A stretch of DNA of 64,000 nt from a virus (lineage: Duplodnaviria > Caudoviricetes). The stretch spans positions 32,001 through 96,000 of IMG/VR virus record IMGVR_UViG_3300037400_006508. One strand, written 5' to 3'. Positions 17,736 to 59,290 of this stretch are shown here, piece after piece. The notes under the pieces were generated by a model. The model ran no database searches. It was not told the origin of the DNA and saw only the letters and a program-made list of their open reading frames with translations. Position numbers and translations under genes: made by a program. Within the stretch, counting starts at the first letter, position 1; each line of letters starts with the position of its first letter.

Positions 17736-17737
17736 GG

Positions 17738-17837: not shown

Positions 17838-17868
17838 CAGTGCCAACCCACCAATCACATCCATCGAT

Positions 17869-18804: not shown

Positions 18805-18910
18805 CTCGGCGGCGGCCGGTGAAGAACGATGCTATGAAACATGATTGTCAGGGAAATCACCCAATTCATGCGGAGCTGACGGATCGTCGATTGCCGCGGT
18901 TCTTTTAAAC

Positions 18911-20300: not shown

Positions 20301-20301
20301 G

Positions 20302-39041: not shown

Positions 39042-39146
39042 ATGAGCGCGGACTACGAAACGTATCTGATGGCCATAGTTTTTTCAGCCCTTGCGATAGC
39101 GATACTGCTCGATTTCTTCGATGACAACAACGGGAGGTTCGGATGA
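39042..39146 (+). CDS. 34-aa single-TM peptide coupled to the metacaspase
   Basis: MSADYETYLMAIVFSALAIAILLDFFDDNNGRFG; ATGA overlap with next gene; absent from ORF track. Confidence 0.6.
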   Translation: MSADYETYLMAIVFSALAIAILLDFFDDNNGRFG

Positions 39147-40246: not shown

Positions 40247-40570
40247 ATGTCAGAGGCATACAGGACTGGATTCTACGCGAAGTGCGCCGAGGCCGGCATC
40301 GATCCGATGCTGGCCGACGTTTTGTACAAAGCCGCCGAGAACGGGGACCCGAACATCGCCAGGGCCACCGAGATATTCAAGGACTATCTGACGAACAGGA
40401 GGGTTTGCGTACGGAACGGAGAGACGCTCTCCGGGATAGCCAGCCGCAACGGAAAGAGCCTCCAGGAGGTCATGGAGGCCAATGGGATGTCTTCGCCGTA
40501 CGTGAAGCCCGGCCAGGTGCTGAAGATCCCTCTGATGTCGGTAGGAAAGGCGGGTAGGGATGCCACCTAA
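40247..40570 (+). CDS. LysM protein with conserved N-terminal leader
   Basis: VRNGETLSGIASRNGKSLQEVMEANGM...PGQVLKIP; leader YRTGFYAKCAEAG...YKAA. Confidence 0.85.
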   Translation: MSEAYRTGFYAKCAEAGIDPMLADVLYKAAENGDPNIARATEIFKDYLTNRRVCVRNGETLSGIASRNGKSLQEVMEANGMSSPYVKPGQVLKIPLMSVGKAGRDAT

Positions 40571-40793
40571 CAGGAAACTCGGGTACATACCGTTCGCGGA
40601 GCGGATGCTTACGAAGGTCGACATCGACAAGATGTTCGACGATCTCCGCGATGAAATACAGGAGCAATTCGACAAGATCGAGGTCATAACCGATCCGGAG
40701 CCCAACACAGTATACGAGATGTTGGCCAGGCAGGACAAGCTGGTCGCGAACCTGAACCAGCTTGCCGAATTCGGGGGCGACACCAACAACTAG
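40560..40793 (+). CDS. small hypothetical protein
   Basis: Overlaps LysM gene; precedes tail fibre. Confidence 0.7.
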   Translation: MPPNRKLGYIPFAERMLTKVDIDKMFDDLRDEIQEQFDKIEVITDPEPNTVYEMLARQDKLVANLNQLAEFGGDTNN

Positions 40794-40804
40794 GAGTCTT
40801 CAAG

Positions 40805-42862
40805 ATGCCACAGGAACTTGGAAACATACTTCTTAACACAACGATCCTCAACAAGGTCGAGGTATCGGGCGTAATCGCAGACACCATAAACAAGGTCGAA
40901 AACCTCGTTGCGGAGGCCGTGTCGACCGCATGGAAGGCCGGAGGGTCGCAGCCGGCGTCCGCTTTTAGCAGCAATACGCTGTTGACGGAGGCTAACGAGG
41001 GCAAGGTGTACAACCTGTCCGACGCCCTTACGATAACGGACCAGAACAAGCAGTACTTCACCGAGAACGCGGCGGGAACCTACCCGGCCGGCACGAACGT
41101 GGCCGTCATCCAGACCACGCCTCCGGTGTACGCGGCCGCATCCGGTACCGCCGTATCCGGTACGAAGTATTATTCTAAGATGGGAAATTTCTACACGGAG
41201 GTTCCGGTACCCGCCGGGGAATCCGTGGAGGGATTGTATATACGTACCTCGCAGCCCGTGTACAAGTACGACGTTCTTGCCGGTACCGACGCCGCCAACG
41301 TCAAGCAGATAAACGTAGGCAGTTCCGCGTATCCGTATTATCCGCAGAACGGCGTTATAACGATACCGATCGCCAGCGGAGTGGAGGGCAGCACCAAGGT
41401 CGACGGGTTCATGTCTTCCGGCCAGGCGACAAAGCTCGATGAAATCGAATCTGGAGCCAACGTAGGTTTTAACGATATATTTACGGACAGTTCATCCGAC
41501 GTCGTTGCGTCCAGTGACGATACCGCGATGGCTATCAGCGGAGAAGGCGGAATCTATACATACAGTGGATCTTCGAATCATTCGCTTCCAACAGTCGTAA
41601 TAAAGGCCAAGGAAGCGACGGAATCGTCTCCTGGCGTAGTAACGCTAGCATCGTCAAACACGTATGAGTGGTCAACCAGCGCAGCGGGCGTTGCAACAGC
41701 GTCCGATGTTGTTTACTATGTTGAGAACTATGTTAGCGACTATAATAATAGTCTTGGAAGGTTTGACGAGCTTACAGTAAACTATGCGGATCCAAACCAC
41801 CCGGGGCAGACTACTTCAAGCTCCCTTTCCACCAGCGGTGGAAACACGCTTGCGGTAACACTTGGTGAAAATATGACGGCAAGCAACTTCTATGACGGTC
41901 ATGACGATACCGACAGACTCGTCACCATAGACGCCATTGTACCGGTCAAGAAGGTCAAGGTCGCCGGATCCGCCAACAGCATTTCACCCGACGCAAGCGG
42001 AAGGGTCACAATCCCGTCGGGAACAACGTCAGCCAGGGGCGTTGTCAAGCTGTACACAAGCGCGTATGGAAGCAATACCGACGGTGCCGTGACGCAGAAG
42101 GCCGTATCGGGCGCGATAAAAGGGCTTAGGAATTTTTCCAAAATTACCGTATTTTCCGATCCGAACGGCGACACTTACAGCTCTGGAGATTTGATTCCAG
42201 ATTCAAATGCATCTCAGCTTAACGTTACTCTTGACAGACCGCTTACCGTATCGAGCCTGTCAAGCTATGAGGTTGTTATTGGCGTCGTTAACGCGACATC
42301 GTCGGCTCCTGGCGCCATGAAGCTGTATCCTTCGGCAAACGGAACGAACAAGGACGGAGCCGTGACGCAGAGCGGAGTGAAGGCGATAGCGGATTCGGTA
42401 ACGGCGCTGCGCAACTACAGCCAGATCACAGCGAAGTATCAAAAATGGAACTCAGGTGGAACAGCCGTGGAATGGGTTTCTGGTTCCATAACTCCGGTAA
42501 CAAACTCGTCCACTATTGCCGTATACGGTGTTGAGTCGGTACAGGTGTCTTCCAGTTCTAATACCGCCATAGCCATTTCTGTCGCAAGACCGGATAGCGA
42601 ACACGGTTGGCCTGGCGTTGTGACGCTGGAAGACGCCGTAGAGTCTAGTTCAGGTGCAAACAAAGGCATTGCGGCATCGCCGTTGATGGTTACAAACTCC
42701 ACGGCCACCCGTGTAAAGAAGAGCATCACGCTCTCTGGACTCCGCCAGGTGTCGAACGACACGCAGACCCCGATTCCCGCGTCGATCAACTCCACCGACA
42801 TACCGAACACGCTCTACGGACTCATCAAGGCGCTCAAGTTCGCCGCCAACCACGCGAGCTAA
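40805..42862 (+). CDS. tail fibre protein
   Basis: Ser/Thr-rich; four fibre repeats such as ATESSPGVVTL and GTTSARGVVKLYTSAYGSNTDGAVTQKAV. Confidence 0.8.
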   Translation: MPQELGNILLNTTILNKVEVSGVIADTINKVENLVAEAVSTAWKAGGSQPASAFSSNTLLTEANEGKVYNLSDALTITDQNKQYFTENAAGTYPAGTNVAVIQTTPPVYAAASGTAVSGTKYYSKMGNFYTEVPVPAGESVEGLYIRTSQPVYKYDVLAGTDAANVKQINVGSSAYPYYPQNGVITIPIASGVEGSTKVDGFMSSGQATKLDEIESGANVGFNDIFTDSSSDVVASSDDTAMAISGEGGIYTYSGSSNHSLPTVVIKAKEATESSPGVVTLASSNTYEWSTSAAGVATASDVVYYVENYVSDYNNSLGRFDELTVNYADPNHPGQTTSSSLSTSGGNTLAVTLGENMTASNFYDGHDDTDRLVTIDAIVPVKKVKVAGSANSISPDASGRVTIPSGTTSARGVVKLYTSAYGSNTDGAVTQKAVSGAIKGLRNFSKITVFSDPNGDTYSSGDLIPDSNASQLNVTLDRPLTVSSLSSYEVVIGVVNATSSAPGAMKLYPSANGTNKDGAVTQSGVKAIADSVTALRNYSQITAKYQKWNSGGTAVEWVSGSITPVTNSSTIAVYGVESVQVSSSSNTAIAISVARPDSEHGWPGVVTLEDAVESSSGANKGIAASPLMVTNSTATRVKKSITLSGLRQVSNDTQTPIPASINSTDIPNTLYGLIKALKFAANHAS

Positions 42863-42885
42863 CGACACAACCAAAGGAAACGACC

Positions 42886-44307
42886 GTGGACATCCACGAA
42901 ATCTTCGAGAACGCGTACGTCGTGACGAACGGCGGCGAAAGGCTGGAGCAGTTCAAGTCCGTCTTCAAGGCGGCCGGGCTGCCCGAATGCAAGGAGTGGA
43001 GGGCCTGCATGATAAAGGGCGAGGGCCAGATGGGCAATTCCGTCTCGCAGTACTCGCTCGTAAGGCACGCCAAGGAGGCGAATCTTCCGTTCCTTGTCGT
43101 TTTCGAGGATGACGCGGTACCGTCGGACGATGCGGAGAAGGAGATCGTTTCCGCGTTCGAGAACAGGAAGGACGACTGCCTGTGCCTGACCCTTGGGTGG
43201 AGCTACGACTCAGACCCGGACGCTGGCGAGGACAAGTCCAAGCATAGGCGCGTGTACGGTTCCCACGCCTATGCACTGTTCGGGGAGAAGGCGTACGACG
43301 CATACGTTTCGCAGTGGCAGGAAAACGGTAGGGCGGATGTCGTCATATCGAAGATGGCCGGCGCGACCATGAATGGCAAGAACCTGTTCGCGCAGCATTC
43401 GGTCGGGGAGACGATACACCTTCCCCACGGATGGACGATCGATTCTGAGATGGAGCGCATGGTTGACAGGGAGGCCGGAGACAGGTTTTCGAAGGCAAGA
43501 GCCGCCGTTGATGCGGCAAAGGCCAAGGATACCATACACGTCGCGTACACGATCGACATCCAGGGCAAGGGCGCCCAGCAGTTCAACGACCAGCTGTACG
43601 TTTCCGCCAGGTCGCTCAAGCTGTCGAAGGCGAAGGATGACGACATCGTCGTCCATGTCATGTACAACGAGATCTCCGTCGACATGATGGAGCGTCTGCA
43701 CGCGCTGGAGTCCGACGGATTCAAGGTGGTGGGAAGGAAGCTTGCAAGGACGGACATGGACTACTGGCAGCAGTTCTCCAAGTACGACCCGGAGTCGCCG
43801 CAGAGGTCGTGGGGCGGCATTGTATATGCAAGGCTGTGGCTTCCGTTGCTTCTTCCTGACGTGAAGAGGTGCATATACCTGGATTCGGATACTTTGGTAA
43901 GGGCCAGCCTGAAGGATTTTTATTCGTCGGATCTGGAAGGGAAGCCGCTCGGCATGGTCATGGGCAGCATAGCCGAGTATGGGTACAATTCCGGTGTCAT
44001 GTTGATGGACCTGGAGGCCATGAGGTCGGATGGATCCGTCTACGGCAAGCTGGAGAAGTTCATGGCCGAGAACGCCAGGAAGTTCTATTGCCCCGACCAG
44101 ACCGTGATCAACAAGTTCTTCGAGGGCAGGATCAAGGAGTTCGGGCAGGAGTGGAACTACCCTCCGAACCAGGGCGTCGTGGACCAGTTCATGCCGAAGG
44201 CGAAGGTTCTTCATTTCTACAACGGCACGCAGAAGCCATACAATCTGTACGCGGACGACTTCGGCCGGTGCCTTGACGAATGGAACAGGATACTTCTGGG
44301 GAGGTAG
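42886..44307 (+). CDS. GT25-like plus GT8 fused glycosyltransferase
   Basis: FLVVFEDDAV...GSHAYAL (GT25-like); YARLWLP...IYLDSDTLV...YNSGVMLMDL...PDQTVIN...LHFYNGTQKPY (GT8). Confidence 0.88.
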   Translation: MDIHEIFENAYVVTNGGERLEQFKSVFKAAGLPECKEWRACMIKGEGQMGNSVSQYSLVRHAKEANLPFLVVFEDDAVPSDDAEKEIVSAFENRKDDCLCLTLGWSYDSDPDAGEDKSKHRRVYGSHAYALFGEKAYDAYVSQWQENGRADVVISKMAGATMNGKNLFAQHSVGETIHLPHGWTIDSEMERMVDREAGDRFSKARAAVDAAKAKDTIHVAYTIDIQGKGAQQFNDQLYVSARSLKLSKAKDDDIVVHVMYNEISVDMMERLHALESDGFKVVGRKLARTDMDYWQQFSKYDPESPQRSWGGIVYARLWLPLLLPDVKRCIYLDSDTLVRASLKDFYSSDLEGKPLGMVMGSIAEYGYNSGVMLMDLEAMRSDGSVYGKLEKFMAENARKFYCPDQTVINKFFEGRIKEFGQEWNYPPNQGVVDQFMPKAKVLHFYNGTQKPYNLYADDFGRCLDEWNRILLGR

Positions 44308-44308
44308 G

Positions 44309-44689
44309 ATGTCCAAGGAATACGCCGCATTTCAGCTCGACGAGCTCGTGCCGGAGGTATCCGACACGAGGTACACGATCTCCACACCGACGCAGACCAC
44401 ATCCGGTACTACCGTGTCGTTGACGTTGAACGACAAGTCGATCAACCAGGTGTCGCTGGCGCCAACCGTCACAGGTGTCACTGTTTCTTTCCCCGCGAAA
44501 GTTCCAGGTTACGCCAGGGACTTCTTCGTAAGGCTCGTGATCACCGGCACAACGGTTCCGGCCATCACGTGGCAGGAGGCCAACGGGGATCCGATCGACT
44601 TCGACGTGGACGACGACTCCTGGGCCGATATAGAGCAGGGCGTCAACATCCTGATGTTCACGGAGACGAGCCAGGCCGCACAGGCTTGA
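44309..44689 (+). CDS. beta-rich putative virion accessory protein
   Basis: ATG 44309 after GGAGGT; Thr/Val-rich. Confidence 0.7.
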   Translation: MSKEYAAFQLDELVPEVSDTRYTISTPTQTTSGTTVSLTLNDKSINQVSLAPTVTGVTVSFPAKVPGYARDFFVRLVITGTTVPAITWQEANGDPIDFDVDDDSWADIEQGVNILMFTETSQAAQA

Positions 44690-44699
44690 GGGGTGCACT

Positions 44700-47600
44700 A
44701 TGTATCCGATTCCGGCAAACGCGGCGCGTATCCAGTACCTCGAAAGTACCGGTACGCAGTACGTGGACACTGGGGTAGTTCCAACAATCAACACGAAGTT
44801 TGTTTATGACATGCGACTTACCGATGTTGAGAACACCAGCTATTTTGGATCTTTTAGTGCCAACAACAGATTCCAGCTGACTAACACATTAAGTAACTCT
44901 AGGACGGTTTTTCGTTTTGCGTGTGGTATTTCTTCAGATTCGGCCATAGATACTAATATCGCTGCCGACACGGATCGACATCTGTTCAGCATCGATCTAG
45001 GCGGAGGAAGCTGTGTTGTTTCTGTGGATGATTCAACCTTTACCAGAACAATAGGGACATCTTTAGTAGATGGCTACTCCGTTTATCTTCTTTCAAGACA
45101 CAATGTGAATGGCGCTTCTGCTTCGAAAGGCGCCCTGTATGCAGCCAAGCACTACGAGAACGGTATTTTGTGCCATGACTGGGTCCCAGTCCGTGTCGGA
45201 ACGGTTGGATATTTGTTCGACCGCATGAGCGGCCAGTTGTTCGGCAACCAGGGGACGGGAGACCCGTTCGTCCTCGGTCCGGACGACTTCTCGATCTTCT
45301 CGCATTCCGTGAAGCACGTCGAGGTTGTGAGCAGCAGGCCGTATGACGCCGAGGTGGAGTACATCGAGTCAACGGGAACACAGTACATTGATACGGGATT
45401 TGATTTTGCATCCAGTCATGATTTCACAATTTCATTATATTTTGACCTACTTAAGCGGAGGGATCCAAGTGAAAACAACTATCTTTTTTCTTGCATCGAT
45501 AGTTCAGCATGGTTATCATGTGAGATAGATCGGTCTTCTCCGTATCGGGCCTATGCAAACGTAGGAACAAAAACGCTTATATACTGTGGGCCATCCCCAT
45601 ATCCATTTAATTCATGGGATATCTTCACCTTTTCAGTAAATGTGAATTCGCAGCAATATACAATTGCTGGTGGTAATTGGTCAACGAGCGGAACGTACAC
45701 GGGTACTTTACCCAGTGGTCGTATCAATTTGCTTACGGGTCGAAATTTGGCGTCAACCGGATCAAGGCCATTTGTTAGGATCGGCTATGTTAAAATTTGG
45801 GACAATGGCACCCTCGTCCGTGACTTTGTTCCAGTCCGTGTGGGCACCGAATACTGCCTCTATGACAAAGCCAATCCGACAAGTGGGGACAATGGGGATG
45901 GGCTTTACCACAACAAGGGCACCGGCGCATTCCTCGGAGGCTCGGACACTGGTCCGAGCATAGTGCTGGCGGGCAGGGTCTTGGGCGACTCATCCGGTAC
46001 CGTGAAGGCCGTGCGCAAGCACTACGACATGCCGGTGCAGTACACGATCGACGAGTGCAACGGCAACGCGCCTACTGCCGTCAACGTGTATTTTCCTTCA
46101 GGAAAGTACAGTGCGCTGAACTACACGCCTACGTGGGAACACCATAGGTTCGTGGGATGGTATACATCCAGGTATGCTCCGCTGGAGTATGTGTACAAAG
46201 CAGCAGAAGCTGATGCCTACGTAGATTCCGGCATTGCAGCCGAAAACAAAGGAACATGGGAAACGGATATACGGTTTTCAACTTCCGGAAATTGCAGATA
46301 CATAGGTGTTGGGACTTCTGGGTCAACGGCAAAGATATCGGCAGGTCTACAGTCGCCGTCATCGACTACAATGATACCTTCGTGCTACGAAACGTGGAAC
46401 GATTCTCCGCTAACGACAATAGACACGACTACAAGACATTTTTTGAGATATGTGTTTCAACCCGGCAATCAGCAATTTTATTGCGACGGCGTTTTGCACA
46501 TGTCGTCAACTAAAACGTCTGTCACTGTTCCTAATTGCAATATAGGCATATTTGAATGCGTAAACCAAGATGGCACAAGACACACATATCATAAATCAAG
46601 AGCCGTGTATTTGTATGAGTGCAAGCTGTATAACAGCAGTGGAGTTCTTGTAAGGCATTTTCTGCCGGTCAGCGATTACTCTGGTGACGCTGCTCTTTAC
46701 GATCTCGTGTCCAATCAGCTGTTTTACTCGCAAACAAGTACGAAACTGGAAGCGGGGTCTGCTGAAACTGAGACGGCGGTGTCTCCATCCGATGCTGTAG
46801 TCTTCGATCGATCGACAGTGTACGCCAGATGGCAGCTTCCGACAACGGTGACCTTCGACGCCACGACCAATGGCGGCCAGATGCCGTCCGGCTGGGTGTC
46901 GCCGGATTACTACGAAGGGCAGCCGTATGGCATACTTCCGACACCAACCAAGTCAGGCGAGGTGTTCCTCGGGTGGTTTACTTCGGGCGGAACCAGGGTT
47001 ACAACGTCCAGCGTTGTTTCTGCCGGCACATTGACCGCACGGTACGCCGCAGTGACATACGACACATCGTTCCAGGTCACCACTACGTCGTCCTACCGCA
47101 AGACCGGAATCTATTCCGCCAACCGATATTCTTCCTCCGACCCGATTGTGGTTGACTGGGGAGATGGAACAACCGATGTTGTTTATGGCAACATCAGCCA
47201 GCTTGCGCACACCTATTCTGGCGCTTCTACATACACGGTCAAAATTTCCGACAACATTAGCACCTTCTGCCCATCATACAGCAACACCACATGGTATCAA
47301 ACGACATCGCAGAATCAGTATACCTTCAAGAAAGTGTTGACCCTCTCATCGAAGGTGACACAGCTGTCGTCATATGCGTTTTACTACTGCTCAGCCATGA
47401 CGGATGCGATCATCCCAAGCAAGGCGACCTCAATACCGACTTCTTGTTTCTATTATTGCTCACAGTTGAAGAGCTCCTCTGTGCAGCTTCCAAGCACGGT
47501 GACAAGCATTGGAAGTTACGCCTTCTACTATTGCAGAGGCAGTTCCTTTATCTCGATAATGATACCGGCGTCGGTGACTAGCATCGGGTCTTACGCTTTC

Positions 47601-48776
47601 GCGAACGACAATTACTTGAGAAATATAACCTTTGAGACGTCGAGTAGCACACTCACACTTAACACGTATGCCTTCAGTGCGTGCTTTTATAGTGGATCGA
47701 CGGCAGCCTCGATCGACCTTTCGCCGAGGAAGATTACTTCTATACCAAACTACTGCTTTAACAATTGCAGGTATTTGAAGGGCATAGTATGGCCTCAAGG
47801 ATTGACCAGTATTGGAGGATCTGCGTTCCGGTACTGCTTCTACTATACTGCTAGCACAGGCACTGTGGAAATCCCAGAGGGTGTTACGAACATCTCTGGC
47901 ACCTATGCGTTCGCCAACTGCCTATACTTGACCGCTGTGACATTGCCAAGCACATTGACCAACCTCAACAACTACACCTTCTATTATTGCACGAGGCTGG
48001 CGACCATCACTTCCAACAGGTCAACGGCTCCCACGGTGTCCTCCGCCACATTCGGCAACAGTTCAACTTACTATACGGGCAGGACATACTACTCGACGGG
48101 AAAGAACAGCCTATATGTGCCAGCAGGAGCAACCGGGTACAATGCATCTTACTGGTCGAGCGTTTTGTGCAACAGCTCCATGTGCGGATTTACTCTTATC
48201 GAGAATTCCATACAGGAGGTAGAATATATCACGCTTACGACAGCGCCTTCCGGAACAATGAGCACGAATGACGGAAACATTCTTCCGATCGACGTCGTTC
48301 CGGGCACTTCTACAGAGCTGGAGATAGACTGGGTTGTGAACAACTCTACAGGAAACATACTGTTTGGAATCTCGTCGTCCAGCGATTCTGCGGATTTCCG
48401 CATATTCTCAACCAACTCTAATTATTACTATGATAGGGGGTCCGGGAGGCTGAGTCCGTCGTATACCACGTTTGGAGTCGGGCTGGGTACGAGGTTCAAG
48501 ATAAAGGCCGGCAACTATTATCTTCAGAACGTGACGGGAGGATATACTGCAACAGGAACAAGTGCGGCGTATACACCGCAGTCTCCACAGTGTCTTGGAT
48601 TCTGGGGGTACACGACGATATACTCCTGCAAGGTGTGGGACGGTAATACGCTTGTCCGTAGTCTTACGCCGGCCAGAATAGGGCAGAACGGAGGATTGTA
48701 CGACTCCGTTTCAGGCAGATTCTTCAGGGTGATCGGTAATGGCGCGTACACGCTTGGATCCGATGTGACGCAGTAG
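44700..48776 (+). CDS. mosaic adhesin / receptor-binding protein (4 lectin-like modules, InlB B-type repeats, PKD-like domain, BspA-type LRR)
   Basis: Repeated module EYxESTGTQYxDTG...LVRxFxPxR..G.LYD; VTFD..GG...PTPTK.G..F.GWFT; VDWGDGT; IPASVTSIGSYAF repeats. Confidence 0.8.
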   Translation: MYPIPANAARIQYLESTGTQYVDTGVVPTINTKFVYDMRLTDVENTSYFGSFSANNRFQLTNTLSNSRTVFRFACGISSDSAIDTNIAADTDRHLFSIDLGGGSCVVSVDDSTFTRTIGTSLVDGYSVYLLSRHNVNGASASKGALYAAKHYENGILCHDWVPVRVGTVGYLFDRMSGQLFGNQGTGDPFVLGPDDFSIFSHSVKHVEVVSSRPYDAEVEYIESTGTQYIDTGFDFASSHDFTISLYFDLLKRRDPSENNYLFSCIDSSAWLSCEIDRSSPYRAYANVGTKTLIYCGPSPYPFNSWDIFTFSVNVNSQQYTIAGGNWSTSGTYTGTLPSGRINLLTGRNLASTGSRPFVRIGYVKIWDNGTLVRDFVPVRVGTEYCLYDKANPTSGDNGDGLYHNKGTGAFLGGSDTGPSIVLAGRVLGDSSGTVKAVRKHYDMPVQYTIDECNGNAPTAVNVYFPSGKYSALNYTPTWEHHRFVGWYTSRYAPLEYVYKAAEADAYVDSGIAAENKGTWETDIRFSTSGNCRYIGVGTSGSTAKISAGLQSPSSTTMIPSCYETWNDSPLTTIDTTTRHFLRYVFQPGNQQFYCDGVLHMSSTKTSVTVPNCNIGIFECVNQDGTRHTYHKSRAVYLYECKLYNSSGVLVRHFLPVSDYSGDAALYDLVSNQLFYSQTSTKLEAGSAETETAVSPSDAVVFDRSTVYARWQLPTTVTFDATTNGGQMPSGWVSPDYYEGQPYGILPTPTKSGEVFLGWFTSGGTRVTTSSVVSAGTLTARYAAVTYDTSFQVTTTSSYRKTGIYSANRYSSSDPIVVDWGDGTTDVVYGNISQLAHTYSGASTYTVKISDNISTFCPSYSNTTWYQTTSQNQYTFKKVLTLSSKVTQLSSYAFYYCSAMTDAIIPSKATSIPTSCFYYCSQLKSSSVQLPSTVTSIGSYAFYYCRGSSFISIMIPASVTSIGSYAFANDNYLRNITFETSSSTLTLNTYAFSACFYSGSTAASIDLSPRKITSIPNYCFNNCRYLKGIVWPQGLTSIGGSAFRYCFYYTASTGTVEIPEGVTNISGTYAFANCLYLTAVTLPSTLTNLNNYTFYYCTRLATITSNRSTAPTVSSATFGNSSTYYTGRTYYSTGKNSLYVPAGATGYNASYWSSVLCNSSMCGFTLIENSIQEVEYITLTTAPSGTMSTNDGNILPIDVVPGTSTELEIDWVVNNSTGNILFGISSSSDSADFRIFSTNSNYYYDRGSGRLSPSYTTFGVGLGTRFKIKAGNYYLQNVTGGYTATGTSAAYTPQSPQCLGFWGYTTIYSCKVWDGNTLVRSLTPARIGQNGGLYDSVSGRFFRVIGNGAYTLGSDVTQ

Positions 48777-48780
48777 ACGC

Positions 48781-50004: not shown

Positions 50005-50013
50005 GAGAAAAAC

Positions 50014-50517: not shown

Positions 50518-50526
50518 GAGGACGAC

Positions 50527-50976
50527 ATGAAGAAGTGGTGGAAGAAGATCTGGAAGAAGATCAAGGAATGGCTCGAGGGCGACGAGAAGTTCGACTACCA
50601 GGGCCTGGACTGGTGCTACGGCGGCGAGAGGGCAAAGGGGGCCGTGGAGGACGTGTCCCAGAACGGGTTCAAGCTGAACTCGGTCTCGGCCGACGAGAAG
50701 GGCGTCAGGTTCTCCGGCGAGGGCAGGATGTGGGGGTACACCCACGACCATGCCGACGCACGCAACTGCATATTCTTCCTCGGCGACGACGGCGTCTGGC
50801 ACGGAGGATTCTGGGAATGGGGCTCCGTGGACAGGACCTACCGAGATTTCAACAACATCTACTCCGGGTACAAGGGGTGGAAGGTGCAGCCGTTCCTCAA
50901 GTCGAAGAGATGGCTGTTCTTCGTCATGACAAGGTCCGGGGATAAGAGGACCAACCTGATGTTCATCGACAGGTAG
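50527..50976 (+). CDS. Trp/Gly-rich protein with amphipathic cationic N-terminal helix
   Basis: MKKWWKKIWKKIKEWLEG; AGGAGG RBS. Confidence 0.75.
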   Translation: MKKWWKKIWKKIKEWLEGDEKFDYQGLDWCYGGERAKGAVEDVSQNGFKLNSVSADEKGVRFSGEGRMWGYTHDHADARNCIFFLGDDGVWHGGFWEWGSVDRTYRDFNNIYSGYKGWKVQPFLKSKRWLFFVMTRSGDKRTNLMFIDR

Positions 50977-50985
50977 AAGTCCGGC

Positions 50986-51795
50986 ATGCCGGAAGGCGAA
51001 ATCAGGGTAGCCTACACGATAGACGTGCGGGGGGCCGGCGCTCAGCAGTTCTGCGACCAGCTCCTCGTCTCCGTGTATTCTCTTCTCAAGACGAAATCGC
51101 CGGACGACCGTATACGCGTGTCCGTGTTCTACGGGAGCATCCCATACGGGCTGGAGCAACGTGTGTCGTCGTTGGGAAGGGACGGATTCAAGGTCGAGTT
51201 CAACAGAATAGACGCAAATCTGCTTGCGAGGCTTGACAGATGTTCCGGAAGGGATCCTACCAAGGGAATACGGACTTTTTCCGGGATAACTTTCGTAAGG
51301 TTCTGCCTTCCGGACCTGATTCCGGACGCGGACAGGGTCGTATACCTGGATTGCGACACACTGGCCCGTTTTCCCATAAAGGATCTTTGGGACGTCGAAT
51401 TCGACGCTGGCTCCCTTATAGCGGCCACGCCGGGCGTCGTACCGGAGTACGGATTCAATTCCGGTACGATAGTTCTCGACCTGGCGGGGATGAGAAGGGA
51501 GGGGTGCGTGGAGCCGTTTCTCGAATATGCCGAAAAAGAGGCGAAGCTGTTCATGCTTCCCGACCAGACCGCCATGAATAAGTTCTTCGGCGGCAGGATA
51601 ACGGAGATTGACGGATCGTGGGTGTTCACTCCGTCCGTCGGAGGAAACAGCCCGTATCTAAGGTCTGCGAAGATGTTTCACTTCTATAACGGGCATAAAC
51701 CGTACCGTATAACCAGGGAAGATACCGGAAGGGTTCTTGTCATATGGAACAATCTTCTTTCCGAGGCGGAAAAGGAGGTGTCCGATGCCGGATAG
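50986..51795 (+). CDS. GT8 glycosyltransferase
   Basis: FVRFCLPDL...VYLDCDTL...FNSGTIVLDL...PDQTAMN...FHFYNGHKPY. Confidence 0.9.
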   Translation: MPEGEIRVAYTIDVRGAGAQQFCDQLLVSVYSLLKTKSPDDRIRVSVFYGSIPYGLEQRVSSLGRDGFKVEFNRIDANLLARLDRCSGRDPTKGIRTFSGITFVRFCLPDLIPDADRVVYLDCDTLARFPIKDLWDVEFDAGSLIAATPGVVPEYGFNSGTIVLDLAGMRREGCVEPFLEYAEKEAKLFMLPDQTAMNKFFGGRITEIDGSWVFTPSVGGNSPYLRSAKMFHFYNGHKPYRITREDTGRVLVIWNNLLSEAEKEVSDAG

Positions 51796-53419
51796 CGAAA
51801 ATGACGGCGCACCGAGCCCGATAGTGGATACGAGAACGGTAGATTATAACTGCGAATGCTGCAAATGCGGTCTTCTTAGCGTCGTTATCGAGTTTGATAA
51901 TGGTTGCAGGTGCCTGGGGATATACAGCAAGGAGGATTGCAGCGGTGATTGGTGGGAGAAAGAATGTCATTACGGCCCTTCCCATTTCGAAGTGGAGGTA
52001 TCTTTGTTGTATTGGGATTCGGAGCCGCCGCCCGGAACGGATCCCGTATCGGCAAGAGAGGTTGTTTTCTTCGAGTTTGACGCGGCGCATACCAGGTCCT
52101 CAGGTTATCTTTCATACTCGTCCCACGAGCAAATACCCGTTTGTTCGCCCGGCAAGTACAAAGTGGAGCTCCGTATATATGGAGACGGCATGAGCGTTAC
52201 CTTCGAGAAGGTTATTACCCTGTCGTCGATATACGGCCAGACCGTGGTTTTGAAGTATAGAAACATGGAATACCACGGGTGCTGCAATCCAACGCTGACT
52301 ATATCGTTGTACGATTTGTGCAGATCGAGAAAAACTCCCGATGGGGATGAAATTGCCGACGATCTGAAGGATTTTGACGACGTAGTAGTTACCATGGAGG
52401 ACGGTACGCAGTATACGCTCACTTACGATCCGGATGATTCATACACCTATTACTACAAGGATTTCGATCTGCCGTGCGGAAGCAGCTCCGGTGGGAGCGT
52501 TGAAAGCGTAACTATAGGCGGCGAGGAGGTTTCTCTTTATTGGGGGGATTTCTATTTTAACCCGTCCCAGCCGTACAATGCGTCTGAGTGGCATGAGGAT
52601 TGCAATTGGTATTTGATGCTCCGCTTGCCGCCCAGATACTATTTGTATCTCAGCATGGAGGGAAACGAATGCACTTCCGTGGGCGATACCATGACTTTGT
52701 ATGTAAAGGATTGCGATTATGGTTCGTGGCACATGACCGGGGTAACGCTTTCAAAGGTGCCCGGAAGTTCTAGCTTCGTATATTTCGACAGAGTTCCGCT
52801 TGAACATTTTAATCTTACCAGTTGCGACTGCAGGAGTCTGGATGTCTATCTTGATCAAGGGGGGAACACACTGGTTGGCCATGCCGATTTCCACGATGAG
52901 TACAATGGTGTTAGAAGCGTGTTCGTTTTGACTGGATCGGTCGACAATATAAAGCTCAGGAGAATAGTTGTAACCGCAAACGAGAAGGAGGATCATATAA
53001 CCGAGCCGTACACCATAACCGTTCACGTCAGTTACTACGACGGATACTCCACGCAGTATTTCACATGTACGCTTTCAAATCAGGGAGGAAGCGGAGGAAG
53101 CGGAAGTTCGGGGTCGTCCGGAAGTGGAAGCGGAGGCATAGGCCCCGGCGCAGGATGCAGCACCGTGGTGTGCATGGAGACGTATTCGTGCGGTGTAGAT
53201 TACATAGACGCCCCGCCCTTCATATACGCCGATTCAAATACAAGTTTTCCGTCGGACGATCTTGTGCAGATAGATATCGGTATCTATTACACCGGTCCAT
53301 ATTATCGTGGATTGCAAGAGCCCGAACCCGTGGTTAAGCTGTTGGAAGCACCGAAAAGCGATGTGGACGATGTATTCAGCGAAGGCGTCGTTGAAGAGTC
53401 AGAGAAAGGCGAAAAATGA
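51785..53419 (+). CDS. acidic Cys/Tyr-rich multi-domain protein with Gly-Ser linker
   Basis: AAGGAGGT RBS before ATG 51785; many Cys; GGSGGSGSSGSSGSGSGG linker. Confidence 0.7.
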   Translation: MPDSENDGAPSPIVDTRTVDYNCECCKCGLLSVVIEFDNGCRCLGIYSKEDCSGDWWEKECHYGPSHFEVEVSLLYWDSEPPPGTDPVSAREVVFFEFDAAHTRSSGYLSYSSHEQIPVCSPGKYKVELRIYGDGMSVTFEKVITLSSIYGQTVVLKYRNMEYHGCCNPTLTISLYDLCRSRKTPDGDEIADDLKDFDDVVVTMEDGTQYTLTYDPDDSYTYYYKDFDLPCGSSSGGSVESVTIGGEEVSLYWGDFYFNPSQPYNASEWHEDCNWYLMLRLPPRYYLYLSMEGNECTSVGDTMTLYVKDCDYGSWHMTGVTLSKVPGSSSFVYFDRVPLEHFNLTSCDCRSLDVYLDQGGNTLVGHADFHDEYNGVRSVFVLTGSVDNIKLRRIVVTANEKEDHITEPYTITVHVSYYDGYSTQYFTCTLSNQGGSGGSGSSGSSGSGSGGIGPGAGCSTVVCMETYSCGVDYIDAPPFIYADSNTSFPSDDLVQIDIGIYYTGPYYRGLQEPEPVVKLLEAPKSDVDDVFSEGVVEESEKGEK

Positions 53420-53844
53420 GTTGCAACTGCGATAAGGACAAGTCTGCGAAAGTGGATTCGCGGTCATCCGGCTACAGCCAGCCAATGGCTTGCGGCAAGT
53501 GCCTTGCCAAGCATTTGTCGAAGGCTTCGGTCGAGTACTCGGAGGTGTTGGAGGACGCATCAAGGTACACCGAGCTGTCATTTTGCATAGGCGATCTGGC
53601 GTGTGCGGAGGACCATGCTTCCGCTCTCGGCTGGAGTGACATGAAGGACAAGATAAGATCCGCCAGGGAAAGCGTATATTCGTTCGAGAAGTCAACGTAC
53701 GACGATCTGGTGTCGCTTGCGTCCGAGGCGGTAGGCCGTATTGTGTCTAAGGACAAGGATAACATGAAGTTTGCGATGGAAATGGCCAAGGCTCGGGCGG
53801 CCGCCCGTGCGTCGGAGGACAGCAACGATGTCGGCGCACCCTGA
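53416..53844 (+). CDS. CxxCxxKH helical protein
   Basis: CGKCLAKH...IGDLACA; similar to 7196-7564. Confidence 0.75.
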   Translation: MSCNCDKDKSAKVDSRSSGYSQPMACGKCLAKHLSKASVEYSEVLEDASRYTELSFCIGDLACAEDHASALGWSDMKDKIRSARESVYSFEKSTYDDLVSLASEAVGRIVSKDKDNMKFAMEMAKARAAARASEDSNDVGAP

Positions 53845-54322
53845 TTCGTTCGAGGAGGGAGACGGAACGGTCGAGTCCGTCACTAAGGACAAGACCGAGA
53901 AGCACGATGAGATCGTCGTCCGCCTCAAGGACGGAAGGCGGATCGTCATATCGAACAACACGGAGCTCGGGAAGCGCATACTTCCGGTTCTTGGTTCGAA
54001 GATAGGATACCACGGATACCGCGTAACCGGCACGAACGTCGTACACAGGACGCACCCGAACAGGGGGTCCAGGGGCGGATGGCTCGAGGAGAAGAAGGCG
54101 CAGTACTGGGGGGATGTCGATCTCTCGCGGGGCTCCGAGGCGCACGAAGGGCAGACCGTGATCGTGCTCGAAGGCCGGAGACAGCTTGAATTTGCGACTT
54201 TGGAGGACGCGGCCAACTATCTGGCAGGCGTAGGAATGCTGCCTAGGTCCGATGTGGAGACCATGCTGCGCAGCAGGGAGCCGCTGATCAACGGAAGACA
54301 GGTCTCCTATCCGGAGGGATAG
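53828..54322 (+). CDS. DUF3465-like protein
   Basis: KHDEIVVRL.DG...NN.ELG.RI...VVHRTH...GGWL pattern; GGAGG RBS before ATG 53828. Confidence 0.6.
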   Translation: MSAHPDSFEEGDGTVESVTKDKTEKHDEIVVRLKDGRRIVISNNTELGKRILPVLGSKIGYHGYRVTGTNVVHRTHPNRGSRGGWLEEKKAQYWGDVDLSRGSEAHEGQTVIVLEGRRQLEFATLEDAANYLAGVGMLPRSDVETMLRSREPLINGRQVSYPEG

Positions 54323-54340
54323 CGCCGCATAGGTTTTTTT
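54306..54340 (+). terminator. possible terminator
   Basis: CCTAT...ATAGG pairing with inner TATCC-GGAG-GGATA hairpin, followed by T7. Confidence 0.35.
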
Positions 54341-54372
54341 GGTTTAATCGCATAAACATCCTGGAGATCGAG

Positions 54373-54942
54373 ATGACACGTTACGAAAAGGGATTTCTTG
54401 CAAAGTGCGCGGAGTACGGGCTTCCGTACGAGAACGCGATCGGACTGTTCAAGTCTGCCAAGGTCACTGGACTCATGAGCGACGGAAGGGTCGTCACAAT
54501 AGACCATGGGAAGAAGACGGTAGGCGGCGGCAGGCCGATGCCGTCCTCGGGCGCCGGGTTCGTTTATACCGGTAAGTCCGATCCAAGGACCGTTGCGTCC
54601 GGAGGAGGGAGGTACAGATACGCTCCGGCTTCCTCGCAACCGGGCGCAAAGTTGGCGAAGAGGCAGCCTGACGGGAAGGGCGGATACCGCATGTCCGAGC
54701 CGGAGTGGAGGAAGACGTACGGCAACACGAAGAGACCGAACCTACCGCAGTCCGAGATCGACAGGATCCATGCGAAAAACGTATCGGCCATGAGGAGCGA
54801 TCCGGACTACATCGCCTGGAGCAACAGGGTCGACCGCGGAGTCAGGGAAGATCGCCTGCGTGCCGCCAGGGAGATGAACGAAATGGCTGAGAAGCTTCTA
54901 GCGGCACGCGCCGCGGCCAGGTCCCGTGGCGGAAGGTCGTAG
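54373..54942 (+). CDS. basic Gly/Arg-rich protein with conserved N-terminal leader
   Basis: MTRYEKGFLAKCAEYG...LFKSA. Confidence 0.8.
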   Translation: MTRYEKGFLAKCAEYGLPYENAIGLFKSAKVTGLMSDGRVVTIDHGKKTVGGGRPMPSSGAGFVYTGKSDPRTVASGGGRYRYAPASSQPGAKLAKRQPDGKGGYRMSEPEWRKTYGNTKRPNLPQSEIDRIHAKNVSAMRSDPDYIAWSNRVDRGVREDRLRAAREMNEMAEKLLAARAAARSRGGRS

Positions 54943-54943
54943 G

Positions 54944-55519
54944 ATGACCCCGTACGAGTCCGGCTTCCTGTCCAGGTGCTCCGAACTTGGCGTTCCGGAG
55001 CGCCTTTCGTCGTCTTTGCTGAAGCGTGCGGCCGAGGTCGGTCTGAAGACGAACCTGACCACGCACGTGGACATGCCCTATGTACCTGCCGTCGATACGC
55101 CGGTTCCCGACAACCCTACGCCTCCTCCGTTCGACTGGTCGAAGCTGGAATGGAAGAAAAGGGAGCCGGGCCTCCTGACCCGTATACTGAACGGCAGGAG
55201 AATATCGAAGTATCCTGACTGGAAGGATCGCATGAACAGGGACGTCGAGGAGCACAACAAGGCCGTCAGCGACTGGTACGACGAGGCGTACAAGAAGCTT
55301 CCGCCGTTGCCCGGAGGACCGGTGCAGAAGCTCAGCGACATCTACGATTACGTACGGAGGCGGCATGCTTTCACGCCGCCGACCCATCTTATGAAGGAGC
55401 AGCCGTCCTTCTATTGGGACGACTCTCCGCAGGAATACAGGCCTCCCACGCGGGATGAAAGGTTCAAGGAGTGGAGGTTCCAGAATCCATGGACCCCCGC
55501 TTCCGAGTTCAAGGGGTAG
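54944..55519 (+). CDS. Pro/Trp-rich protein with conserved N-terminal leader
   Basis: MTPYESGFLSRCSELG...LLKRA. Confidence 0.8.
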   Translation: MTPYESGFLSRCSELGVPERLSSSLLKRAAEVGLKTNLTTHVDMPYVPAVDTPVPDNPTPPPFDWSKLEWKKREPGLLTRILNGRRISKYPDWKDRMNRDVEEHNKAVSDWYDEAYKKLPPLPGGPVQKLSDIYDYVRRRHAFTPPTHLMKEQPSFYWDDSPQEYRPPTRDERFKEWRFQNPWTPASEFKG

Positions 55520-55523
55520 CCGG

Positions 55524-58091
55524 ATGTCCGTAAAGTCAGCCCAGATTCCGGTGGACTTCATGGGCTGGGCCCAGGCCCAGGTTCCACATGACGTCGTGTC
55601 GTCCGTCGAGCGCAGCACGCCGGAGAACAAGATCGCGTTCGGTACAGGCAAGGGCGTGAAGGCCGGGTTGTCCCCGGAGGAGGCGAAGCTACGCGCCCTT
55701 CAGCACGAACTGGCGCTAAATCAGCAGGAGAACACGTCCACCGGTCTTGTGTCGGGACGGCCGTACAAGAATCACGAGTTTTTTGCAAGGACCAATATGC
55801 CGGAGAAGGTGTATGTCAATGTAGGCGGGTACGGGGAAGGGGAAGGCAACCCGCTTCTGTTCGGCGGATCGATTTCCCCCAATCCTGTCCTTGATCTGGC
55901 TACACCCGGAAAGATAGCCCCGGAGGACACCCTATCGTTTCAGCAATCGCAGGGAAGGGCGGCACAGAACGCGATAGATCTATTCAGGGCCGCCGGCGTG
56001 CCAGTCGAGTTGTTCGGGCATTCGTACGGAGGCGACACGGCCGCGCACCTGGCCGTTGCGAACCCGGACGTACCGACGCATGCAATAGATCCCGTCAGCA
56101 TGTTCAATCAGGTTCCTTCGGAGAAGAGGCCGTCGAACCTGACCGTGTATCAGCCGTACGGCAGCGCATGGAACGACGTTCCGTACGATTTCATCGCAAC
56201 CGTCGGAAACAAGTACGCCCCGGACAGGAACACCGTTCAGTACGAAGGCGGCCATGTCAAGGGGACAGGGCAGCTTGTCGACAGCATAATAGACGATTCA
56301 ACGGCGAAGCGGACGTCCGATGCCGCGGTTCCGGCGCCATCCGCGGTCGTTCCTCTAAAGAAGGCCGGAAGCGGCCTCGTAGGTCCGCACAACATAGGTT
56401 CCGTATTCATGAAGGCGGCCGCCAGCTATAGATGGGGAGACGCATCTGCAAAACCTATCGTACCGGCCGAGAAGCCGGCGGATCCGCCGGCGCAGCCGAA
56501 AGAAAAAGGATCCGGCGGGTTTTCCCTTTTCGACAATGCCGCTACAAGGGGCATAGCCGATGCGATAAACTGGGGAATCGACACAGGATCCAGGGTCGGA
56601 ACGCGCATGGGGTGGGTCGATCCGGACGCGAACGCAAGAAGGCTGAGGGACAGGGCCGCCCGCCGCGAGGCGGACGAGAACAACGGGGTCGTGACCGGAA
56701 AGTACTACCGCGAAGCCCTGGACAGCGCATTGGACGACTGGAACGCCGGACAGGGCGACAAGGCGTGGACGAGAACGCTTGACGACCATTTCAGGTGGGG
56801 GAACATAACTCCGCAGGAATACTACGGCATGTTGAAGGACCAGTACGGCAAGTATGCGTACATGTTCGGCATGCCGGGGGACATGTCTGCCGATCCTAAC
56901 GGGCAATTCCCGATTACCAGGGACGGGAAGCCGGTCATGGTTCTTGGAAATGGCAAAAACGAGCAAATGGCCGTCGACACCAGGCAGAGGCAGTATGCAT
57001 TCCAGAAGATGCTGGAGGGCGCGGGGCAGCATTTCGCCCATATGAAGGACGGTGATGTCGGATTCTTCGGTCCCTACACCCGTGCGGCTTCGTTCGCCAT
57101 AAACGAGGACAGGTCGTTGCACGATGGACCTTTTGTAGCGAACACCGACAATCTTTCCGATGTATATCCGGCTCCAGGAAGCATGCGGACCGGAAAGCCG
57201 TGGGGGTACAATCTTGCCGATCTTTCAGACAAGGCGAAACAGTTTCGCATGGATCGCGAGCTGGAGTGGTACGATAGACAGCTGGAGGAAAGTCGGAAGC
57301 TTCCGGAGTGGCAACGCGTCCCAGGTCTCGAAGAAAGCATCCTTTCGGCCAAAGAATCGGCAAAAAGGCCATGGGAGAAGTATTTTGTGGAGACCCCGGC
57401 GCGCCTCAAGAGCCTCAGCGACGGAATATCGATGAGAAAATACAATCTTGAAAACGGCGACGGCCTTACGCCGGAGGACAGGGATAGACTGCAATCGGAG
57501 ATAGACTCCATGCAGAAGGAGTACGACAGCCTGTATGAAGGCAGTCGCGAGCAGGATAAGATGGATTGGGCCAGGGTCGGAGACGCCGCCGGATTCGCGG
57601 TACCGTATCTTGCGTTTCCGACGTACGCCATACCGACCTACGGAATAAGCTCGGCTACGCGAAACCTGAACAAAGGAAACTACGCGTCAGCCGTCATGGA
57701 TGCCGCGACGGCGGCCATTCCTTTCGGGGTAGACAGACTCGGAATCAAAAACAAGGTAGGGCAGGTTGCGGCGAATCTCGTTCCGTTCGGCGTTGCGCAG
57801 ACGGCCGGCCCGCTCTTGGACGAGTATTCGTACGGCGGGTACAACGACGCGACTCCGGAGTATCAGGAGGCGATGTCCCGGATACAGAACGACATGCAGA
57901 GGACAAGGGACATATCCTCTCTTGCCGCGATGTTGTCGGGCTATGACCAGATGAGTCCGGAAGACCAGGCCGGTGTATGGAGGATGTTTAACAATCTGAC
58001 GGAATCCGAGATGGATCAGCTGGACGCATTCGTTAACCAAAATGGCGGGAAGATAGACATCCCATGGCGTACCCAGACCTATTTTAAGTAA
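55524..58091 (+). CDS. large putative virion protein with alpha/beta-hydrolase domain and hydrophobic C-terminal helices
   Basis: Nucleophile elbow LFGHSYGG, HAIDPV, GGH; start ATG 55524. Confidence 0.75.
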   Translation: MSVKSAQIPVDFMGWAQAQVPHDVVSSVERSTPENKIAFGTGKGVKAGLSPEEAKLRALQHELALNQQENTSTGLVSGRPYKNHEFFARTNMPEKVYVNVGGYGEGEGNPLLFGGSISPNPVLDLATPGKIAPEDTLSFQQSQGRAAQNAIDLFRAAGVPVELFGHSYGGDTAAHLAVANPDVPTHAIDPVSMFNQVPSEKRPSNLTVYQPYGSAWNDVPYDFIATVGNKYAPDRNTVQYEGGHVKGTGQLVDSIIDDSTAKRTSDAAVPAPSAVVPLKKAGSGLVGPHNIGSVFMKAAASYRWGDASAKPIVPAEKPADPPAQPKEKGSGGFSLFDNAATRGIADAINWGIDTGSRVGTRMGWVDPDANARRLRDRAARREADENNGVVTGKYYREALDSALDDWNAGQGDKAWTRTLDDHFRWGNITPQEYYGMLKDQYGKYAYMFGMPGDMSADPNGQFPITRDGKPVMVLGNGKNEQMAVDTRQRQYAFQKMLEGAGQHFAHMKDGDVGFFGPYTRAASFAINEDRSLHDGPFVANTDNLSDVYPAPGSMRTGKPWGYNLADLSDKAKQFRMDRELEWYDRQLEESRKLPEWQRVPGLEESILSAKESAKRPWEKYFVETPARLKSLSDGISMRKYNLENGDGLTPEDRDRLQSEIDSMQKEYDSLYEGSREQDKMDWARVGDAAGFAVPYLAFPTYAIPTYGISSATRNLNKGNYASAVMDAATAAIPFGVDRLGIKNKVGQVAANLVPFGVAQTAGPLLDEYSYGGYNDATPEYQEAMSRIQNDMQRTRDISSLAAMLSGYDQMSPEDQAGVWRMFNNLTESEMDQLDAFVNQNGGKIDIPWRTQTYFK

Positions 58092-58094
58092 CAG

Positions 58095-58577
58095 ATGGCG
58101 TCCACCTTTTCATCCGTGATACAGCTTCTCCTGTCCGTGTTCGACTTCATAAGGGGCCGGTCGGACAGGAAGCGGAAAAGGCTTGACGTGCTGGAGGACA
58201 GGATAAAGGCGATCCAGCGCGATATTGCAAAAGCCCTGGAAGATGGTAGAATAACCGACGTAGCCACCCTGAGGATGGAGTTGGACGGATTGAAGAAGGA
58301 GTACGACAAGCTTGGAGGAAAACGCGCATCGGTGGCCGCCGCCACCGGCATGCTTCTTTTTTTAGCCATTACGCCGTTTTTGTCCGGATGCTTTTCGACC
58401 AGGTCGGATCCGTCGACCCCGTATGTGGTCGTCGGCGAGAGGATCATAATACTGGAGCCCGGTTCCGAGCTCGTTGTTCCGGAACTGGTTCCTCCGGCGA
58501 AGAAATGGTACCTGATAGACAACATAGGCCTTCAGGTCGGACTTGGCATACCGATGTTACTGGAGAACGACAGATGA
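58095..58577 (+). CDS. coiled-coil protein with internal lipoprotein signal (spanin-like candidate)
   Basis: Heptad region, then KRASVAAATGMLLFLAITPFLSGC lipobox and Pro-rich tail. Confidence 0.55.
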   Translation: MASTFSSVIQLLLSVFDFIRGRSDRKRKRLDVLEDRIKAIQRDIAKALEDGRITDVATLRMELDGLKKEYDKLGGKRASVAAATGMLLFLAITPFLSGCFSTRSDPSTPYVVVGERIIILEPGSELVVPELVPPAKKWYLIDNIGLQVGLGIPMLLENDR

Positions 58578-58930
58578 AGGACTTTTCCGGGCTTCTCAAG
58601 ATCGCCGGTGTCGGATACTCGCCCACGGTGGGCGACTTCATGAACAGATGGAACGGCGACATCAACGCGAATCCGTTCCAGAGGAGCGACGCGTTCAGCC
58701 GGATCAACAACGCCGGGCTCGACGTCAAGCAGCCGGCATCCAGGATACCGTATGTCCTTGGCGGCGGCGTTCTTGGAAGGGCCGCGGCATCATACCTGGG
58801 GGCCAATCCGTTCTGGAAGAACGTAGCCACGGTAGGCGGGGCCATGGTCGGAAATTCCATTTACAAGAAGAACAATCCGGATCCAAGGGCGATGCCGGTC
58901 GCACCAGGAGTGATAAGGAGAGGTTGGTAG
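58574..58930 (+). CDS. glycine-zipper membrane-like putative virion protein
   Basis: LGGGVLGRAAASYLG...VGGAMVG; KIAG near N-terminus. Confidence 0.7.
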   Translation: MKDFSGLLKIAGVGYSPTVGDFMNRWNGDINANPFQRSDAFSRINNAGLDVKQPASRIPYVLGGGVLGRAAASYLGANPFWKNVATVGGAMVGNSIYKKNNPDPRAMPVAPGVIRRGW

Positions 58931-59290
58931 ATGTACAGGATAAACGAGTTCTTGACCCCCAGGGAGAGGGCCGAGGCGATAAGGGTCGGCGCTCTTCGCA
59001 AACTTGCTTCTTTGGGCATGACGCCGTCCGATTTTTCCCGCCAGATGAAAAAATCGGCCCTTGCCGGGGCCGCAGCCGGCGTCGGGGCTGCCGCGGCCGG
59101 CAAGATGGCGCCGCTTCTGTCCCCGAAGACGCTGTTTTCGCTTGCCATCTACCTTGGAATTCCGCTTGGGGCGCTGAGCTACGGCCTAAAGAGCTCGTTC
59201 TCCCCGGAGACAAGCGCAAACAGCGATCTGAAGACCAAGCTTGACGAGATGAACGACATCGTCGAGCAGTACAGGAGGCAGCTCGGCTAA
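58931..59290 (+). CDS. Gly/Ala-rich membrane-like putative virion protein with leader-like segment
   Basis: IRVGALRKLASLGM...MKKSA followed by two hydrophobic segments. Confidence 0.75.
   Translation: MYRINEFLTPRERAEAIRVGALRKLASLGMTPSDFSRQMKKSALAGAAAGVGAAAAGKMAPLLSPKTLFSLAIYLGIPLGALSYGLKSSFSPETSANSDLKTKLDEMNDIVEQYRRQLG

Follow-up and report, generated by a model that had tools for sequence, protein, structure and literature searches.

We analyzed a 64,000-nucleotide stretch of phage DNA (the window; bases 32001–96000 of the 143,525-bp IMG/VR virus record IMGVR_UViG_3300037400_006508, from an uncultured phage of the Caudoviricetes) in which several genes begin with the same leader of about 29 residues and continue into different C-terminal regions, here called cargo. 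Comparison of the genome with its relatives modestly favors the reading that this leader is a prohead propeptide resembling the capsid-targeting sequence (CTS) of phage T4, which a head protease of the gp21 type would remove, leaving small basic proteins in the head. An earlier note on the window, written from the sequence alone, had described the leader as a portable address tag that loads swappable effectors into the head and is clipped at its terminal K-x-A. All of the indirect evidence from our analysis is in keeping with the core of that description, an N-terminal address tag that is clipped at K-x-A, and to that extent the description is partly supported.

A profile built from the leader copies matches six open reading frames (ORFs) of the 143.5-kb genome with E values of 1e-18 to 1e-20, the next best match standing at 0.15; with so wide a gap, the copies are not a chance occurrence. 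Three of the six ORFs lie inside the window, starting at 40247, 54373, and 54944. The remaining three full copies are at genome positions 104675, 105855, and 106489 (72675, 73855, and 74489 in window numbering, past the end of the window). The leaders and cargos of the window, together with a protein claimed earlier as a further copy, are as follows (window numbering):

40247–40336, + strand, leader copy 1: 30 residues, ending in LYKAA (profile E value 2e-18)
40337–40570, + strand, cargo 1: LysM domain protein (Pfam LysM, E value 4e-14; isoelectric point (pI) 9.7)
54373–54459, + strand, leader copy 2: 29 residues, containing LAKCA and LFKSA (profile E value 3e-19)
54460–54942, + strand, cargo 2: basic (pI 10.7), with residues 33–110 disordered and long C-terminal helices after them
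54944–55030, + strand, leader copy 3: 29 residues, ending in LLKRA (profile E value 8e-18)
55031–55519, + strand, cargo 3: Pro/Trp-rich (pI 8.1)
58931–59290, + strand, claimed degenerate copy, not a detectable member of the family: small protein with a hydrophobic Gly/Ala-rich segment

According to the earlier note, the three genes in the window open with a shared module, the first of them carries LysM, and the cargos are unrelated. The ORF starts, the profile scores, and the LysM match all bear this out, and the cargos of the window copies are mutually unrelated (BLASTP E values above 0.8); the sole paralogous cargo pair among the genome copies is 104675/105855. Orthologs of cargo 1 that carry the leader are present in both comparison phages introduced below. 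A homolog search with the full 54373 protein matched only the protein itself, with none outside its own genome, and cargo 3 gave no family match in Pfam or PHROGs scans. The degenerate copy proposed at 58931 did not hold up: this protein scores −0.2 bits against a profile of 139 sequences, is without the G-F and the Cys, and does not carry the proposed module at its N terminus.

Beyond this genome, a search of 1.84 billion representative proteins returned 354 protein clusters that match the leader profile at E ≤ 1e-3. The module lies within the first six residues in 139 (94%) of the top 148 profile matches, and the 137 cargo regions on which our cargo statistics are based fall into 105 unrelated BLAST groups. 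This is the outcome that the earlier note had proposed to look for by a profile search of the genome and related phages. Two related phages with complete genomes served for comparison, G001 (176.8 kb, 57% G+C) and G002 (151 kb with terminal repeats, 38% G+C), and these carry 10–11 and 11–12 leader copies, respectively; together with the phage of the window they are the three phages referred to below. The leader itself belongs to no family in Pfam or PHROGs, as judged by a scan of the six leader proteins, and we found no paper describing either the leader or the motif at its end.

Computed over 138 family members, the information content stays high between M1 and A29 and drops immediately afterward to about 0.1 bit, so the earlier statement that similarity ends at K-x-A applies to the whole family. 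The 29-residue consensus is MTrYEqGFLTKCAEyGV[PD]xxxAxxLLKxA. F8 is invariant, and Y4, G7, K11, C12, and A13 are near-invariant in the detected members, with the count for Cys12 partly forced by member picking that used the profile and a regular expression requiring Cys. Within the leader, third codon positions are the least conserved (0.41–0.43, against 0.71–0.86 at second positions), and this pattern holds also between the 57% and 38% G+C phages. Selection therefore acts on the peptide, and a nucleotide-level element, such as a recombination or regulatory sequence, was ruled out on the same ground.

Departures from the standard architecture are few. A minor subfamily has two or three complete modules per protein (P0014, P0019, P0024, P0084, P0113, and P0125) with a shorter second helix, GFMDKCAELGVDxxxLIKxA; its members might be polyproteins with a cut at every module, or they might bind multivalently. 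P0021, P0025, and P0146 have a DUF3008-like segment (KSxxQQRLFGMVHAYQKG...) ahead of the leader, so that the module does not begin at residue 1. A gene at genome positions 98188–98673 (window 66188, outside the window) opens with only the first nine leader residues, MTPYELGFL, and may represent a shortened form of the tag. KTA follows this stump, giving FLKTA, and the protein then runs through a basic region into a hydrophobic segment that resembles a Gly zipper.

The leader genes are concentrated among head genes. About 90% of them lie within a portal-to-major capsid protein (MCP) block that is syntenic in the three phages and consists of genes for the portal, an RNA polymerase beta/beta-prime(N) fusion, beta-prime(C), an 831-residue protein, four conserved uncharacterized proteins, the head protease, the scaffold (an acidic Ala-rich protein of 393 residues), two small proteins, and the MCP (324 residues); sheath and tail genes come next. 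Leader genes occupy slots between the conserved genes, and their number and cargo vary from phage to phage. The orthologs in G001 and G002 are 62–63% identical for the portal and 72–73% identical for the RNA polymerase beta/beta-prime(N) protein. On a 143.8-kb contig, a distant member of the leader family sits two genes 5′ of the RNA polymerase beta gene. The description of the leader genes as late genes is one that we infer from gene position. Other features of the block in the window are as follows:

35548–38211, + strand, portal protein, the upstream border of the head block (phrog_2739, E value 2e-8)
39143–40003, + strand, caspase-family (C14) peptidase, just 5′ of leader copy 1 (Pfam Peptidase_C14, E value 3e-17)
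61623–64000, + strand, start of the RNA polymerase beta/beta-prime(N) fusion gene, within the head block and running past the window edge

The leader ends in a motif, hydrophobic-x-K-x-A, that also marks the other proteins of this block. We compared motif frequencies with those in shuffled sequences, for the portal-to-MCP block and for the genes elsewhere in the three phages. Enrichment was 3.1-, 3.3-, and 3.8-fold in the block and 0.8–1.2-fold elsewhere, and with the leader genes removed the block was still enriched 2.8–3.3-fold (P values of 1e-12 to 6e-15). None of nine control patterns was enriched in the head blocks. Among them were substitutions of the K by R or E and of the A by G or S, motifs with shifted or reversed spacing, and the patterns L/I-x-E, A/S/G-x-E, and [VLI]-x-A-[ST]. 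The T4 code [LI]-x-E reached only 1.1–1.3-fold, and the ratio for the phiKZ code [ASG]-x-E was 0.84–0.99. The cleavage codes of T4, phiKZ, and plain assemblin were rejected for these head blocks for want of enrichment.

The placement of the motif is equally uneven. It occurs within the first 45 residues of 19 of 43, 21 of 46, and 22 of 36 block genes, against about 3 expected, with the rest of the genomes at chance. Residues 25–29 of the MCP form the motif in all three phages, the scaffold contains six copies and the protease nine, and inserted fiber and glycosyltransferase genes are nearly free of it. At 29 of 48 sites the motif is kept as a motif in both orthologs while the x positions change. 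The leader itself holds two motifs, one at residues 9–13 (LTKCA; 134 of 138 members) and one at the boundary to the cargo, residues 25–29 (LLKxA; 127 of 138). Hydrophobic-x-K-x-A is probably the cleavage site of the head protease. Most often the motif Ala is followed by S, A, G, E, or Q, and two registers are possible: a cut after the Lys, which would put the hydrophobic residue in the P3 position as T4 has it, or a cut after the Ala, with a small residue at P1′ like the assemblin sites discussed below.

The candidate enzyme is a 472-residue protein encoded 5′ of the scaffold at genome positions 110976–112394, in the order protease, scaffold, MCP; more than 540 homologs are found on contigs of 140–206 kb. 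Residues 1–206 of its structural model superimpose on T4 gp21 (5jbl) with a Z score of 12.3 and a root-mean-square deviation of 3.0 over 147 residues, and gp21 is also the top Foldseek match. Z scores against the proteases of varicella-zoster virus (VZV) and human cytomegalovirus are 6.9 and 5.0. By this modeling, the fold of the head protease is that of T4 gp21.

Salmonella phage Arash (OQ632216), the nearest relative in culture and a distant one, allowed the motif and the enzyme to be followed together. It shares the order of the head module with our phages, its MCP is 27% identical, and it has an ortholog of the gp21-type protease (E value 1.5e-52); no C14 peptidase was found in it. The hydrophobic-x-K-x-A excess is present in gp218–gp226 (12034–20912) and absent from the tail genes, with nine sites in the 307-residue gp220 and eight in the 255-residue gp223, against about 0.8 expected, and MCP residues 25–29 read LVKEA. 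Because Arash combines the motif excess with a gp21-type protease and is without a C14 peptidase, the gp21-type enzyme is the one indicated, and the C14 peptidase is disfavored as the enzyme behind the motif. The RNA polymerase subunits of Arash are among its most-detected virion proteins, with the homolog of the beta/beta-prime(N) fusion ranking first (PMC10585845), which indicates that homologs of the products of this block end up in particles.

The cargos have a consistent character despite their sequence diversity. With a median of 140 residues they are small, and with a median pI of 10.0 they are basic; 114 of the 137 (83%) have a pI above 9, a level reached by 26–32% of the full gene sets of the three phages. 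Ala, Gly, Arg, and Pro are abundant in them, Cys is almost absent, and most are of low complexity. Pfam domains recognized among them are LysM (5 members), glycine zippers (three families of 2–5 members each), SH3_3, collagen, and DUF3008, and the same scan found no enzyme or toxin domain. The claim of a portable tag in front of swappable effectors therefore agrees in its first half with the N-terminal placement and the diversity of the cargo, and is not supported in its second, since cargo without enzyme or toxin domains does not fit the label of effectors. The cargo looks rather like basic internal head proteins of the T4 kind, some of them envelope-binding.

Residues 1–31 of the 54373 protein, modeled by AlphaFold with the family alignment, have predicted local distance difference test (pLDDT) values of 94–97 and form a helix (3–14), a turn, and a second helix (19–31), after which about 80 residues are disordered. 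The model thus confidently presents the leader as an autonomous two-helix hairpin. A fold search with the 54373 model gave matches only through the long C-terminal helix, none covering the leader. We propose that, during prohead assembly, the hairpin docks the tagged protein to the scaffolding core. Once the shell has formed, the gp21-type head protease would cut the leader at hydrophobic-x-K-x-A and free the basic cargo within the head, next to the DNA; with two motifs in the leader, the tag would be broken into short peptides. The cargo would then leave with the DNA at infection. That the leader directs incorporation into the prohead is, in our judgment, slightly more probable than the contrary, and the exit of the cargo with the DNA is a plausible but somewhat more doubtful step.

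The closest parallel is T4, in which highly basic internal proteins are cut once beside a 10-residue N-terminal targeting sequence (PMC8442874), whereas both scaffold and protease undergo many cuts (PMC8442874; PMC3012670). In both systems a short N-terminal tag is common to otherwise unrelated, small, highly basic proteins, and the motif at its end recurs in scaffold and protease and at the N terminus of the MCP; in both, a gp21-fold protease is encoded beside separate scaffold and MCP genes, and the cargo loci are variable. The T4 CTS, MKTYQEFIAE, and the start of the leader, M-T-R-Y-E-Q-G-F-L, even share the pattern M-x-x-Y-[EQ]-[EQ]-(G)-F-[IL], a stretch short enough to be due to convergence or chance. 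The differences are also clear. The leader is three times longer than the T4 CTS, is predicted to form a hairpin, and has a near-invariant Cys; the motif is hydrophobic-x-K-x-A rather than the L/I-x-E of T4; the phage encodes its virion-type RNA polymerase in two genes and has an MCP of 324 residues; and it draws on hundreds of cargo families, with no detectable sequence homology between the leader and the T4 CTS. Because there is no sequence match, the motif differs, and the host phage is not T4-like, the leader system is, on sequence grounds, an analog of the T4 system and not a member of it by descent. The near-invariant Cys may add a step absent in T4, for example a redox or covalent link to the core.

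Other capsid systems share parts of this scheme. Many head and ejection proteins of SPN3US, phiKZ, and 201phi2-1, among them those of a phage that carries a virion RNA polymerase, lose N-terminal propeptides at a short motif (PMC10052503, PMC5694885); some of these propeptides have only 20–24 residues, and several motif copies occur in long propeptides and in the protease itself. Unlike the leader, however, these propeptides are protein-specific, with no shared portable module, and the motif is A/S/G-x-E. About 30 N-terminal residues of phage P1 DarB suffice to send a foreign protein into the capsid (PMC9024508), but that system has a single large cargo, no known family of shared tags, and no demonstrated link to a protease motif. 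Herpesvirus assemblin belongs to the same protease fold family, as the VZV comparison indicates, and cuts after Ala with a hydrophobic residue upstream and a small one downstream, as at the pseudorabies virus sites YLQA-T and VQA-S (PMC4498786). The preference here for S, A, or G after the Ala is similar; in contrast to assemblin sites, Lys is invariant two residues before the Ala, and [VLI]-x-A-[ST] by itself shows no enrichment.

Several observations weigh against a cleaved capsid-targeting propeptide. The first motif of leader copy 3 is altered or defective (LSRCS), and a cleavage motif with otherwise variable x positions does not account for the near-invariance of Cys12. The minor subfamily has two or three full modules per protein, one of them at the extreme C terminus in P0019, which is odd for a pure N-terminal signal. 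A tblastn search of 50,697 phage records, T4-like phages included, with the leader consensus found nothing at E ≤ 1, and no copy of the leader was found in Arash; no cultured phage carrying the leader thus came to light. Finally, so confidently folded a hairpin could equally be a permanent docking domain. If so, it would be an uncleaved docking or oligomerization domain that binds one common partner (scaffold, portal, inner body, or capsid surface), and the motif would be a binding motif rather than a cut site. The invariance of Y4, G7, F8, and C12 beyond the motif and the internal and C-terminal module copies in one subfamily would agree with this, and LysM, SH3, and collagen cargo would suit surface display. 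We nevertheless consider permanent docking improbable. A motif near the N terminus together with many copies in scaffold and protease is the classical signature of prohead-protease substrates, and the motif here clusters at the N termini of about half of the head-block proteins, with its multiple copies in scaffold and protease; basic, disordered cargo with Gly-zippers also suits internal proteins better than decoration.

Less likely still, the leader might be no capsid address at all but a recognition tag for another enzyme, either the C14 peptidase or a Cys modifier of the kind that acts on leaders of ribosomally synthesized and post-translationally modified peptides (RiPPs). The C14 gene stands directly 5′ of leader copy 1, both comparison phages have it conserved, its product is itself without hydrophobic-x-K-x-A, metacaspase-type enzymes cut after Lys or Arg, and Cys12 is near-invariant in members whose detection partly requires it. 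Against this, Arash shows the motif enrichment with a gp21-type protease and no C14 peptidase, and the C14 gene of G002 is far from the leader genes. As for a radical-SAM maturase as a RiPP-like partner of the leader, no PF04055 match was found in the 143.5-kb genome, whereas 14 of 14 control genomes matched. We give very little weight to the hairpin being a helix-turn-helix (HTH)-type nucleic acid binder that ties proteins to the phage DNA for co-packaging or action on DNA. An Atlas structure search did align leader residues 1–27 with two helices of HTH_38, HTH_23, and sigma-70 region 4, at template modeling scores of 0.58–0.68 by query, but over 27 residues, and with two helices only, such scores mean little; the net charge of the consensus leader is about zero, with the basic residues in the cargo, and Pfam HTH, SAP, and HeH gave no leader match at E ≤ 1. 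Similarly remote is a family of lysis-related or membrane-acting proteins with the leader as a regulatory or anchoring segment in the cytoplasm. Cargo of the LysM, SH3_3, and glycine-zipper kinds and a weak Rz-like spanin match of the genome 106489 protein (E value 0.007) point that way, but only 12 of 137 cargos have a transmembrane-like segment, the genes lie among head-assembly and virion RNA polymerase genes rather than in a lysis cassette, and the head-block motif at the end of the leader would be left unexplained.

Neighboring genes of the window add some observations of their own. The C14 peptidase gene, which lies between the portal gene and the first leader gene, encodes an SGHG...DCCHSG dyad pattern. 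Right after the portal gene, positions 38213–39004 encode a 263-residue protein with an HEVGH string resembling a zinc-metalloprotease motif; neither Pfam nor PHROGs has a family for it, and G001 contains only a short matching piece. A 685-residue Ser/Thr-rich protein with a Phage_fiber_2 repeat (E value 1e-5) is encoded at 40805–42862. Just 5′ of leader gene 2, positions 53828–54322 encode a 164-residue protein matching DUF3465 (E value 2e-5), whose orthologs in G001 likewise adjoin a leader gene. Just 3′ of leader genes 2 and 3, at 55455–58091, is the gene of an 855- to 878-residue protein without a Pfam family or an ortholog in G001 or G002; its GHSYGG string is reminiscent of the nucleophile elbow of serine hydrolases.

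If the leader is a prohead propeptide of the kind favored here, the principle of tagging, loading, and clipping is not a peculiarity of T4 but recurs, with another tag and another protease code, in unrelated and abundant uncultured phages. Hydrophobic-x-K-x-A near the N terminus would then predict head-internal proteins and their processing sites, a rule that would annotate dozens of currently unannotated genes per genome, and the putative cleavage code is open to bench tests in Arash, a phage available in culture. The leader is also a candidate portable tag for packaging foreign proteins. More tentatively, a large uncultured clade of 140–200-kb phages with their own RNA polymerase may load hundreds of small basic proteins into the head by means of a hairpin tag and a new protease code, the latter shared with Arash; the T4 CTS system would then have a second counterpart of independent origin and far greater extent.

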